This document shows positions 15,001 through 52,555 of a stretch of DNA of 64,000 nt, one piece after another; within the stretch, counting starts at the first letter, position 1, and every line of letters begins with the position of its first letter. The notes below the pieces were generated by a model. That model saw only the letters and a list, made by a program, of their open reading frames with translations. It was not told the origin of the DNA and did not search any database. This DNA comes from Escherichia coli. Its GTDB lineage: Bacteria; Pseudomonadota; Gammaproteobacteria; Enterobacterales; Enterobacteriaceae. The DNA lies in the NCBI RefSeq assembly GCF_044324785.1, contig NZ_CP172127.1; one strand, given 5' to 3'. The translations under genes and the position numbers were made by a program.

Positions 15001-15012
15001 TTACTGCGACAA

Positions 15013-15038
15013 ATTACTGCGAGCTTGCTCGCAGTAAT
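15013..15038 (+). terminator. gntU terminator hairpin
   Basis: attactgcgagc-tt-gctcgcagtaat palindrome followed by T-rich tract; preceded by a direct copy ttactgcga. Confidence 0.6.
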
Positions 15039-15139
15039 TCATTTCTCTTTTCTCCTGTCTTCATCTTTTTGATCTCTCTCGCAAATTTACCTGCTAATAA
15101 TCCGTTCTAATCACTGCCTAAAGATCGCAGGAGATAAAG

Positions 15140-17236
15140 ATGGAAAAGCACGGAGCTGAATTGCTTTTACAGCGGATGTTAGGAAATACCACCGCTACTT
15201 TCAGGGAAGGGCAATGGGAAGCCATAGATGCAGTGGTTAATCAGCGGCGAAAACTGCTGGTTGTACAGCGCACCGGCTGGGGGAAAAGTGCCGTGTACTT
15301 CATCGCCAGTAAAATCTTCCGAGATCGCGGCGCTGGCCCGACAATTATCATCTCTCCTTTGCTTGCCCTGATGCGTAACCAGGTTGCCGCCGCTGAACGG
15401 TTAGGTATTACGGCTGAAACGTTGAATTCTACAAACAGGGAAGAATGGCAGCGCATTAGCGATAAGTTGCTGCAAGGTGAGGTCGATTGCTTGCTGGTTT
15501 CCCCGGAACGATTGGCAAACCAGGACTTTATCGAAACGGTTTTATATCCTATAGCCGATCGTATTGGCTTGCTTGTGGTCGACGAGGCGCACTGCATCTC
15601 TGATTGGGGCCACGATTTTCGCCCGGATTACCGACGTATATTAGATATTTTGCGCCAACTGCCTGCGAATACCCCTGTTCTGGGTACAACCGCGACAGCG
15701 AATAACCGTGTTGTTGAGGATATCCGTCAGCAATTGGGTGACATTGTGATTCAGCGTGGAACGCTGGCTCGCGAAAGTTTGGCGCTTGATGCCTTAGTCT
15801 TAGGAGAACAGTCATCCCGTCTGGCATGGTTAGCAACGGTTATCCCTCAGTTTTCCAAATCGGGAATTGTTTATACCCTGACGACTCGCGATGCTGAACT
15901 TGTCGCCGAGTGGTTAAGGAAAAATGGTATCAGTGCATTTGCTTACTACAGCGGCGTGACTTGTGAAGGCGCGGAAGATTCTAATACTGCCAGGGAATAT
16001 CTGGAGCAGGCACTGCTGGCAAATAAAATCAAAGTGCTGGTCGCGACGACGGCATTAGGTATGGGGTTTGATAAACCTGATTTAGGTTTCGTCATTCATT
16101 ATCAGATGCCGGGGTCTATTGTCGGTTACTACCAACAGGTGGGGCGTGCCGGTCGTGCTATAGATTCCGCAGTTGGCATATTGCTTTGTGGTGGTGAAGA
16201 CCGCGCTATTCATCAATTCTTCCGTGAAAGCGCCTTTCCTGCGGAGGCGCAAATTCATGAAATACTCAACGTACTTAGCGAGAATGACGGTCTTACCCTA
16301 CGAGGCATTGAACAACGGACGAATCTTCGTTATGGGCAAATAGAAAAAGCACTGAAATTATTGGTAGCGGAAAATCCATCGCCTGTGGTGTATACCGAGA
16401 AATTATGGCGCAGAACTATCGTCAGTTTTTCTCCTGATCATGAACGAATTAACCATTTGATGAATCAGAGAAAAAGTGAGCTGGCAGACGTTGAAAGCTA
16501 TATCACGACCAAGGAGTGCAAAATGCAATTTCTGCGCCGTGCACTCGATGAGCCAAGTGCCGAACGTTGTGGTAAATGTAGCAGTTGTCTTCAGCATCCG
16601 TTATTGTCGCCCGACATTGATAGCGGCTTACTCCATGCGGCAAATTTATTTATTAAACACGCTGACCTGCCGTTAAATCTCAATAAACAGGTGGCAGCTG
16701 GGGCTTTTACGCAATACGGATTTAAAGGGAACTTGCCTGCGGGTTTACAAGGATCTACGGGGCGAATCCTTTCTCGTTGGGGAGATTCCGGGTGGGGAAA
16801 GCAGGTAGCACAGGAGAAAAAAACGGGGCGCTTCAGTGATGAGCTGGTAGAAGCATGTGCGGAAATGGTTCGCCAACGCTGGAATCCGCATCCTGAACCA
16901 ACCTGGGTATGCTGCGTTCCTTCATTAAGGCACCTCGACCTGGTTCCTGATTTTGCCCGGCGACTGGCGGCGAAACTTGGCTTACCTTTTATTGATGCCA
17001 TTGAAAAAGTCGTGGACAATCCACCGCAGAAAATGCAGCAAAACCGTTTTCACCAGTGTCAAAATCTCGACGGGGCGTTTGTGATTACCCCTCCTTTGAT
17101 GCCAGGTCCGGCGTTGCTGGTTGACGATATCGTGGATTCTGCATGGACGCTGACAGTTCTGACAGCACTGTTACGCCAGGCAGGTTGCCCGACGGTTTAT
17201 CCTCTTGCCCTTGCTTCTACCTCGGTAAAAAATTGA
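15140..17236 (+). CDS. RecQ-family DNA helicase fused to a C-terminal ComF-like phosphoribosyltransferase (PRTase) domain
   Basis: 698 aa; FREGQ motif 0, Walker A TGWGKS, DEAHCISDWGHDFRPDY, ATTALGMGFDKPD, QQVGRAGR, Cys cluster CK..CGKCSSC; C-terminal ...NLDGAFVIT...ALLVDDIVDSAWT aligns with ComF/GntX PRTase fold; good SD aggag upstream. Confidence 0.85.
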   Translation: MEKHGAELLLQRMLGNTTATFREGQWEAIDAVVNQRRKLLVVQRTGWGKSAVYFIASKIFRDRGAGPTIIISPLLALMRNQVAAAERLGITAETLNSTNREEWQRISDKLLQGEVDCLLVSPERLANQDFIETVLYPIADRIGLLVVDEAHCISDWGHDFRPDYRRILDILRQLPANTPVLGTTATANNRVVEDIRQQLGDIVIQRGTLARESLALDALVLGEQSSRLAWLATVIPQFSKSGIVYTLTTRDAELVAEWLRKNGISAFAYYSGVTCEGAEDSNTAREYLEQALLANKIKVLVATTALGMGFDKPDLGFVIHYQMPGSIVGYYQQVGRAGRAIDSAVGILLCGGEDRAIHQFFRESAFPAEAQIHEILNVLSENDGLTLRGIEQRTNLRYGQIEKALKLLVAENPSPVVYTEKLWRRTIVSFSPDHERINHLMNQRKSELADVESYITTKECKMQFLRRALDEPSAERCGKCSSCLQHPLLSPDIDSGLLHAANLFIKHADLPLNLNKQVAAGAFTQYGFKGNLPAGLQGSTGRILSRWGDSGWGKQVAQEKKTGRFSDELVEACAEMVRQRWNPHPEPTWVCCVPSLRHLDLVPDFARRLAAKLGLPFIDAIEKVVDNPPQKMQQNRFHQCQNLDGAFVITPPLMPGPALLVDDIVDSAWTLTVLTALLRQAGCPTVYPLALASTSVKN

Positions 17237-18438
17237 TGAATCTTTCAGCCAATGCACAAGCGACTCTCCTGCTAACCAGCGATTTTTCTCGCGCGGCGGC
17301 GAGTGAGTATAAACCTCTTAGTAATAGTGAATGGGGGAAGTTTGCATTATGGCTGAAGCACCAACGTATCAGTCCCGCCGATCTTCTGGTACCGCAACCG
17401 CAAGAGAAACTTACAGGCTGGAGCGATCCGCGTATTTCTCAGGAGCGTATTCTTGGCTTGCTGGCGCGTGGTCATAGTCTGGCGTTGGCGGTAGATAAGT
17501 GGCAACGCGCCGGATTATGGATCTTAACCCGCGGAGATGCCGATTATCCCGTTCGCTTGAAAAACCGATTGCGAACGGATGCTCCTCCCGTTTTATTTGG
17601 CTGCGGGAATAAAGCATTATTGCAAGCGGAAGGTATGGCGATTGTTGGCTCGCGAGATGCTCCGACTGACGATTTGCGCTATACCCAACAACTGGCAGCG
17701 AAACTGGCCCAACAGGGGATTTGCGTTATCTCTGGTGGTGCGCGAGGTATTGATGAATGTGCAATGGCGTCGGCACTGGAGGCCGGGGGAACTGCCGTTG
17801 GCGTATTAGCTGATAGCTTGTTAAAAACGAGCACGTTAGTGAAATGGCGTGAAGGGCTTATAGCAGGCAACCTGGTGTTGATTTCACCGTTTTACCCAGA
17901 GGTACGTTTCACTGTCGGCAATGCGATGGCGCGGAATAAATATATTTATTGCCTTGCTGAAAGCGCAATGGTTGTACGTGCGGGAATGACCGGTGGAACG
18001 ATAACCGGAGCGATGGAGGCGTTAAAACATCAGTGGCTGCCTGTTCTGGTTAAACCAAATCAGGATGTGCAATCAGCCAATTCACGATTAGTAGAAAATG
18101 GGGCGTCATGGAGTGCTGAACAGGCTGAGAATGTGACGATCAGACTGCCAGATGTTCCTGGGCTGATGTATGACAGAGCACTCCGTAACGCTCAACCAGA
18201 ATTGTTTTCGCTGCTCGAAGATGACGCAAATTACGCAGTAATGCCCGCGCATACCCCTGTCGATTTTTATCAACTCTTTGTGGCGGAACTGGCGATCCTT
18301 GCAAAGGAATCGATAAGTATTGAAAGGCTGGCGTCTTGTACTGGTTTAACCATCGAACAAATTAGTGTGTGGCTGAACCGCGCAGAAGAAGAGGGAAGGG
18401 TTATCCGATTGGGCGAAGGTCATTATCAGTTCAGGTAA
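17236..18438 (+). CDS. DprA/Smf-like DNA-processing protein paralogue
   Basis: 400 aa from MNLSANAQ; YPVRLKNRLRTDAPPVLFGCGN, IVGSRDAPTDDLRYTQQLAAKLAQQGICVISGGARGIDECAMASALEAGG Rossmann DprA core, C-terminal winged-helix-like tail; start shares 1 nt with the helicase stop (TGATG). Confidence 0.8.
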   Translation: MNLSANAQATLLLTSDFSRAAASEYKPLSNSEWGKFALWLKHQRISPADLLVPQPQEKLTGWSDPRISQERILGLLARGHSLALAVDKWQRAGLWILTRGDADYPVRLKNRLRTDAPPVLFGCGNKALLQAEGMAIVGSRDAPTDDLRYTQQLAAKLAQQGICVISGGARGIDECAMASALEAGGTAVGVLADSLLKTSTLVKWREGLIAGNLVLISPFYPEVRFTVGNAMARNKYIYCLAESAMVVRAGMTGGTITGAMEALKHQWLPVLVKPNQDVQSANSRLVENGASWSAEQAENVTIRLPDVPGLMYDRALRNAQPELFSLLEDDANYAVMPAHTPVDFYQLFVAELAILAKESISIERLASCTGLTIEQISVWLNRAEEEGRVIRLGEGHYQFR

Positions 18439-18440
18439 TA

Positions 18441-18478
18441 AAACAGGTGCCGCGTCTGGTTGTGTGCAGCACCTGTTT
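18441..18478 (-). terminator. yhgN terminator hairpin
   Basis: aaacaggtgc ... gcacctgttt 10-bp inverted repeat, T-run on minus strand. Confidence 0.55.
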
Positions 18479-18483
18479 GAACC

Positions 18484-51063: not shown

Positions 51064-52555
<1,492 letters not shown>

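Follow-up and report, generated by a model that had tools for sequence, protein, structure and literature searches.

The stretch analysed here, 64,000 nucleotides of the Escherichia coli chromosome (hereafter the window), carries two extra genes within the order gntK, gntU, the two extra genes, yhgN, asd, glgB. The first, rqlH or psyrT, is a 2097-nucleotide open reading frame (ORF) at 15140–17236 on the plus strand, as are all features of the pair given below, and it encodes a toxin of 698 amino acids (aa), a RecQ-like superfamily 2 helicase with a C-terminal ComF-like phosphoribosyltransferase (PRTase) domain. The second, rqlI or psyrA (17236–18438), encodes a 400-aa antitoxin of the DprA-like (SLOG) type, and its ATG overlaps the TGA of rqlH by one nucleotide (TGATG). 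Our subject is the loop of the PRTase domain that corresponds to the phosphoribosyl pyrophosphate (PRPP) loop of this enzyme fold and that reads DDIVDSAWT; an initial annotation of the window had taken this divergent sequence as a sign of altered or lost PRPP chemistry.

Both genes lie in an island of 3483 bp (15001–18483), which, by BLAST against MG1655, stands in place of the 56-bp gntU–yhgN intergenic region of K-12. The exchange relative to K-12 is exact, from stop codon to stop codon, and the island is bounded by one hairpin at each end (15014–15037 and 18442–18477); no flanking direct repeats and no mobility genes were noticed at 15001–18483. Of 5426 complete E. coli genomes, 1641 (about 30%) carry the island at 95–99% identity, and strain N3 encodes an identical 698-aa protein.

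The pair at 15140–18438 is the known toxin–antitoxin and defence system PsyrTA, or RqlHI, so that the initial suggestion of a role in an immune system is borne out by PADLOC. The PsyrT profile (PDLC03928) matches aa 3–697 of the larger protein over profile positions 5–687 of 689 (E = 0, 1067.8 bits), and the PsyrA profile matches aa 1–400 of the smaller one over positions 1–397 of 398 (6.3e-201); for the latter, the ShosA model of PADLOC is a weaker match (1.4e-27) and the NCBIfam dprA model (2.3e-29) falls below its cut-off. The locus thus has a full-length PsyrT match, an adjoining downstream DprA-like gene, and the order of helicase, tetracysteine zinc module and ComF-like PRTase, which are the features of PsyrTA membership, and psyrT also adjoins a DprA-like gene in two unrelated metagenomic loci. 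PsyrTA and RqlHI have been described as one system (Millman et al. preprint), and the RqlH–RqlI pair of the extraintestinal pathogenic E. coli F11 (PMC4670107) is PsyrTA (Sberro 2013; Millman 2022), with the same pair of genes, architecture and numbering. We detect no difference between the F11 pair and the one described here: K49, D148 and D663 of the 698-aa ORF carry the numbering of F11 RqlH, and the 400 aa of RqlI equal its published length (PMC4670107). The architecture also agrees with the description of RqlH from Mycobacterium smegmatis (PMC3378886). The protein, the domain and the flagged motif have therefore been described before, and the motif was mutated experimentally in 2015; the small addition made here is a family-wide loop signature with an invariant Trp.

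In RefSeq, the DprA-like gene starts at ATG 17143, which gives 431 aa and a 94-nucleotide overlap with rqlH (17143–17236). The shorter start at ATG 17236 is more likely the correct one, because the match to the PsyrA profile begins at the first residue of the 400-aa product and because 400 aa is also the published length of RqlI. RqlI also gives weak matches to the LOG/TIGR00725–TIGR00730 Rossmann families, and in relatives from two metagenomic loci (L003, 6816–7466; L004, 6814–7971) the DprA-like partner matches Pfam LDcluster4, a SLOG family. These sequence matches hint that, besides single-stranded DNA (ssDNA), some nucleotide-like product might be bound or processed by the partner.

The N-terminal part of RqlH contains the helicase core (15206–16159), with a DEAD domain at aa 23–194 (Pfam PF00270, 4.9e-25) and Helicase_C at aa 239–340 (PF00271, 4.2e-13), followed by a RecQ-type zinc-binding module (16466–16591, aa 443–484; PF16124, independent E-value (i-E) 0.0014) with CGKCSSC at aa 477–483; the RqlH family profile can likewise be aligned with two RecQ structures, 4Q47 and 1OYW. 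The N-terminal half scores 252.8 bits with NCBIfam recQ_fam, above the cut-off of 219.8, and the RefSeq name of the 15140–17236 product is “RecQ family ATP-dependent DNA helicase”. In the RqlH-specific linker that joins the helicase core to the zinc module (16256–16369, aa 373–410) there is a weak MarR_2/winged-helix-like match, which at i-E 0.19 may be due to chance. The identity of RqlH as DpdF, the helicase of the Dpd system, was considered and rejected: the NCBIfam DpdF equivalog model gives 148.9 bits where its cut-off is 550, and in the helicase part only. PADLOC models named “DpdF” match the 698-aa protein many times, but more weakly than PsyrT does. Two of them cover only the PRTase/C-terminal part, namely PDLC02869 (74 positions, 7.9e-54; 17012–17233, aa 625–698) and PDLC02866 (255 positions; 16523–17221, aa 462–694); both look like PsyrT-type fragments filed as DpdF, with a risk of mis-annotation.

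The C-terminal domain (16640–17233, aa 501–698) is a ComF-type PRTase fold. The initial annotation had recognized this fold and assigned to it about 115 aa, at 16892–17236, which in frame is aa 585–698 plus the stop codon; the fold stands, and the size does not, because the folded domain comprises about 198 aa. The call rests on a family profile and a structure model. Relatives were collected with the C-terminal 198 aa as query (1656 proteins at E ≤ 1e-3), from which 150 representatives of 50%-identity clusters were taken, and a 79-sequence alignment was built from relatives of the domain. The resulting profile aligns to the GntX protein encoded in the window with an hhalign probability of 94% (E 1.3e-7, aa 618–691), pairing Q630, N642 and A646-F647 of RqlH with ComF hallmarks, and against the sequences of the Protein Data Bank (PDB) it matches PRPP synthetases at 1.4e-6. 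The PRTase alpha/beta core is present in the model, and the fold comparison ranks ComFC (7P0H) highest, at 15.3 over 164 aligned residues, ahead of PurF (10.8) and PRPP-bound ShosT (8ZVB, 9.7). Single-sequence searches give a weak signal for the fold (PDB phmmer E 0.25, Pfam i-E 0.0087); a precomputed match to the PRTase family Pribosyltran (PF00156) is recorded for most close relatives of RqlH. A word-indexed protein search returned close relatives only and did not reach ComF or ShosT, and a ShosT model is absent among the best 25 of 39 PADLOC matches.

The loop lies at 17123–17149 (D662-D663-I-V-D666-S667-A668-W669-T670), in frame as first read, within the segment ALLVDDIVDSAWTLT (aa 658–672, nucleotides 17111–17155) and downstream of the NLDGAFVIT stretch (aa 642–650, nucleotides 17063–17089). 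The canonical loop with which it had been contrasted is likewise present in the window, in gntX of the ComF family (51064–51747, minus strand, with the start at MLTVPG inferred from the ORF translation), where VIVDDVVTTGSTV includes DDVVTTGST from nucleotide 51168, the first of the DD pair, down to 51142. In the structure model of RqlH, the DD pair ends a strand (658–665), D666-S667-A668 form a turn, and a helix (669–680) begins with W669; this predicted strand–loop–helix arrangement at 658–680 is the classical phosphate-binding geometry.

Conservation of the loop was counted over 128 aligned domains, each from a different 50%-identity cluster. The acidic pair is kept, as had been stated, with D662 in 128/128 and D663 in 127/128, and S667 (127/128), W669 (126/128) and T670 (123/128) are likewise conserved at 96% or more; V665 is found in 103/128 and D666 in 104/128, and position 668 is R in 71, G in 45 and A in 5 of the 128. 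The family signature is therefore DD-h-V-D-S-[R/G/A]-W-T, and it recurs in hundreds of metagenomic relatives. The initial annotation had allowed that homologues might carry a canonical loop; across the 128 relatives it is this same signature that is found instead. The context A-L-L-V-D-D-I-V-D-S-A-W-T has the canonical length and retains both the acidic pair and the Ser/Thr residues (S667 and T670) of a PRPP loop. In classical enzymes, the two hydroxyl residues of the loop hold the 5'-phosphate. The non-canonical features are the Trp at position 8 and the Ala, or in many relatives Arg, at the position of the canonical Gly. On a neighbour-joining tree, position 668 shows at least 33 changes between neighbours that stay fixed, in keeping with a contact made through the backbone like that at the canonical Gly. 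Because the loop is near-invariant among representatives of 128 clusters, it is not in decay; judged by its sequence, DDIVDSAWT looks like a strongly constrained family version of the PRPP loop, working rather than degenerate.

A further pattern concerns position 668 (nucleotides 17141–17143) together with position 636 (17045–17047): Arg668 and Arg636 occur together in only 6 of 245 relatives, and the E. coli protein has A668 and R636. Compensation between the two was considered as evidence for a phosphate-contacting charge and rejected as such, as the neighbour-joining tree gives only two direct swaps and many sequences have neither Arg; instead of compensation, the avoidance may reflect the clades to which the sequences belong.

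Two further regions of the domain would complete a PRPP site. The stretch P594-S595-L-R597-H598-L-D600 (16919–16939), which lies in the model between strand 589–592 and helix 601–613, is our candidate for the pyrophosphate (PPi) loop, with P594 and S595 invariant and R597 kept in 76/128 relatives. In the flexible loop or hood region, the motif Q630-K-x3-N635-x3-Q639-x2-N642-x2-G-A-F647 (17027–17080) aligns to TQHFLSARLRKRNLKNAF of GntX. Q630, K631, N635, Q639 and N642 are the conserved residues of this second PRPP-contacting region, with Q630, N635 and N642 invariant or nearly so among the 128 relatives. A Q...N-x2-G/N-A-F motif ahead of the PRPP strand is thus found together with ComF/GntX as the closest fold.

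Among non-metabolic PRTase proteins, ComFC and ShosT are the nearest relatives with solved structures. ComF loops follow DD[VI][VI]TTG[ST]T, as in DDVVTTGST of GntX and DDIITTGTT of Helicobacter pylori ComFC, whereas RqlH follows DDxVDS[RGA]WT, so that the canonical ComF loop is not that of RqlH. ComF is moreover a stand-alone competence protein of about 200–250 aa with its own N-terminal four-Cys finger, in contrast to RqlH's PRTase domain, which is fused behind a RecQ-type zinc module. ComFC has been crystallized with PRPP (H. pylori, PDB 7P0H; PMC9005727), and T165A in its loop, which corresponds to T670 of RqlH, abolishes nucleotide binding and transformation and leaves ssDNA binding in place (PMC9005727). 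ShosT (PDB 8ZVB and 8ZVD), the toxin of ShosTA, resembles RqlH in having a PRTase domain and a DprA-like antitoxin as its partner, and it likewise causes DNA damage and filamentation; its PRTase is fused to an N-terminal pyrophosphatase domain, where RqlH instead has a RecQ-like helicase. PRPP is bound in two independent crystal structures of ShosT, and D331/D332 are required for its toxicity (PMC12961424, PMC11961720).

The D-S pair of the RqlH loop has its counterparts among metabolic enzymes. The loop of E. coli Hpt, a 6-oxopurine PRTase (PDB 1G9S), reads EDIIDSGNT, and those of the PRPP synthetase Prs read DDIIDTAGT in Bacillus subtilis (PDB 1DKR) and DDMIDTGGT in E. coli. Hpt and Prs share with RqlH an Asp at position 5, Ser or Thr at position 6, a tolerated Ala at position 7 and Thr at position 9; unlike RqlH, neither solved sequence has a Trp at position 8. 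These enzymes have different hoods and oligomeric states, and their similarity to RqlH outside the loop is marginal. Since D-S and Ala occur in genuine 5-phosphoribosyl binders, the loop lies within the canonical range, and what truly sets it apart is the invariant Trp rather than D-S.

Experiments on this protein family have been published. In E. coli F11, RqlH needs the PRTase domain for its toxicity, which its partner neutralises (PMC4670107). Deletion of the PRTase domain removes both toxicity and SOS induction, and D663A or the replacement of DIVD663 by EVME abolishes growth inhibition and SOS induction, with the expression of every variant confirmed by western blot (Russell and Mulvey 2015, PMC4670107). 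The helicase-dead variants K49A and D148A still lower viability, and RqlI co-precipitates with full-length RqlH and not with the 1–509 truncation (PMC4670107). In M. smegmatis RqlH, the ComF-like, PRTase-like C-domain is dispensable for ATPase and helicase activity (Ordonez et al. 2012, PMC3378886). Phage protection by PsyrTA has been reported (Millman 2022), and in one study it was not detected for PsyrTA of E. coli NILS69. We found no mechanistic study of PsyrTA itself in the literature that was searched.

Taken with the above, the PRTase pocket of RqlH probably binds PRPP or a related 5-phosphoribosyl ligand, and its activity would be delivered at DNA by the RecQ-like motor and restrained by RqlI. 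The pocket would be a live site for such a ligand, PRPP being the most likely one. In it, the ribose hydroxyls and Mg2+ would be held by D662 and D663, and the 5'-phosphate by S667, T670 and the 666–670 backbone, at the N-terminus of helix 669–680; D666 stands where 6-oxopurine PRTases have their catalytic Asp. Through the fused motor, the PRTase activity may act on or near DNA, the resulting DNA stress (SOS induction and filamentation) may be the basis of toxicity, and the DprA-like RqlI may restrain RqlH by binding the PRTase domain. The notion of altered or lost PRPP chemistry fits poorly with a loop that keeps its length, its acidic pair and S667/T670, that is near-invariant, that shares its residues with Hpt and Prs, and whose DD mutants are non-toxic. 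A part in ligand sensing, or one connected with nucleic acids, is conceivable.

Several points weigh against such an active site. We know of no counterpart in classical PRTases to the invariant Trp or to the frequent Arg at the Gly position. The Pfam match to PF00156 is weak (i-E 0.0087, 15.8 bits, aa 605–683). ComF proteins have an RGFNQ motif in their PPi loop, whereas RqlH has a shorter candidate PPi loop, and the RGFNQ or RG[FY]NQ motif is absent after its VPL strand (VPSLRHLDLVPDF, compared with VPLWQRRHWRRGFNQ in GntX). The PRTase domain alone is non-toxic (PMC4670107), ShosT showed no transfer to common purines (PMC11961720), and in the literature we found no PRPP-binding or transferase assay for any RqlH or PsyrT. 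The fold, the loop conservation and the system identity are shown by the present data, and the need for D663 in toxicity and for the domain in RqlI binding by published work; that PRPP is bound, that there is catalysis, what the acceptor is and what W669 does are inferred.

Other explanations have to be considered. The domain might be a non-catalytic ligand sensor like PurR, PyrR and possibly ComFC, in which the binding of PRPP or a nucleotide switches the helicase or the RqlH–RqlI association, and toxicity would then come from deregulated helicase activity or DNA handling, not from a transfer reaction. We regard this as possible and rather unlikely: the helicase-dead K49A and D148A variants still cut viability, whereas the DD-motif mutants do not, and D666, located where hypoxanthine-guanine PRTases have their catalytic Asp, is conserved in 104 of the 128 relatives, which suggests chemistry rather than binding alone. 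A bolder form of the catalytic reading makes DNA itself the acceptor or substrate, reached through the fused 3'–5' helicase, with W669, D666 and the labile R/G/A668 as its signature. A nucleobase in ssDNA would be phosphoribosylated, or base exchange or pyrophosphorolysis would be run on it, and the SLOG/DprA-like RqlI would recognise or reverse the lesion. We consider this unlikely; if true, immunity would here make use of a novel type of enzymatic DNA damage.

The PRPP site might also be dead, and the domain might serve as a docking surface for RqlI, an ssDNA-binding module, or both, with the DD mutants merely destabilising the fold. The departure of the loop from the ComF consensus, the weak Pfam score, the need of RqlI binding for the PRTase domain, and the ssDNA binding retained by ComFC T165A all accord with this. 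Dead sites, however, normally drift, and D662, D663, S667, W669 and T670 are near-invariant across 50%-identity clusters; because of this near-invariance we disfavour a dead site. In addition, the conservative exchange of DIVD to EVME also abolishes toxicity although all variants are expressed, and D, S and A stand at the same loop positions in active enzymes, so that a dead site appears decidedly improbable. That the divergent loop arose from a sequencing error, as the initial annotation had allowed, or from a pseudogene lesion confined to one strain, has a practically negligible probability and is refuted by the hundreds of metagenomic relatives and by the N3 protein and the 1641 genomes; the last two together exclude a sequencing artefact.

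The relatives of PsyrT provide a few further observations. Some reach 900–1700 aa (P0109, P0137 and P0077) and have N-terminal Mre11-like phosphoesterase, pentapeptide-repeat and helix-hairpin-helix (RadA/NusA-type) modules before the RecQ–PRTase unit; the Mre11-like and helix-hairpin-helix fusions fit with a DNA-centred role. Others, of 267–272 aa, contain the PRTase only and resembled stand-alone versions of the domain; this idea was rejected, as both of those inspected on long contigs are disrupted psyrT genes, one split or frameshifted and one interrupted by a DDE transposase, that still adjoin a DprA-like gene. Decayed psyrTA is seen at two metagenomic loci (L003, 5346–8117; L004, 3213–7971): in one, the helicase and DprA-like genes are in fragments, and in the other, a DDE transposase lies between the helicase and PRTase parts. 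It appears that the psyrT toxin gene has been inactivated repeatedly in nature.

The picture of RqlH published in 2012–2015 is unchanged by the present analysis. Clues to ligand specificity are of some value for the PRTase toxins of PsyrTA and ShosTA, and the present clue is a modest one: a conserved, probably functional loop with an invariant Trp narrows the informative point mutants to W669, S667, T670 and D666.

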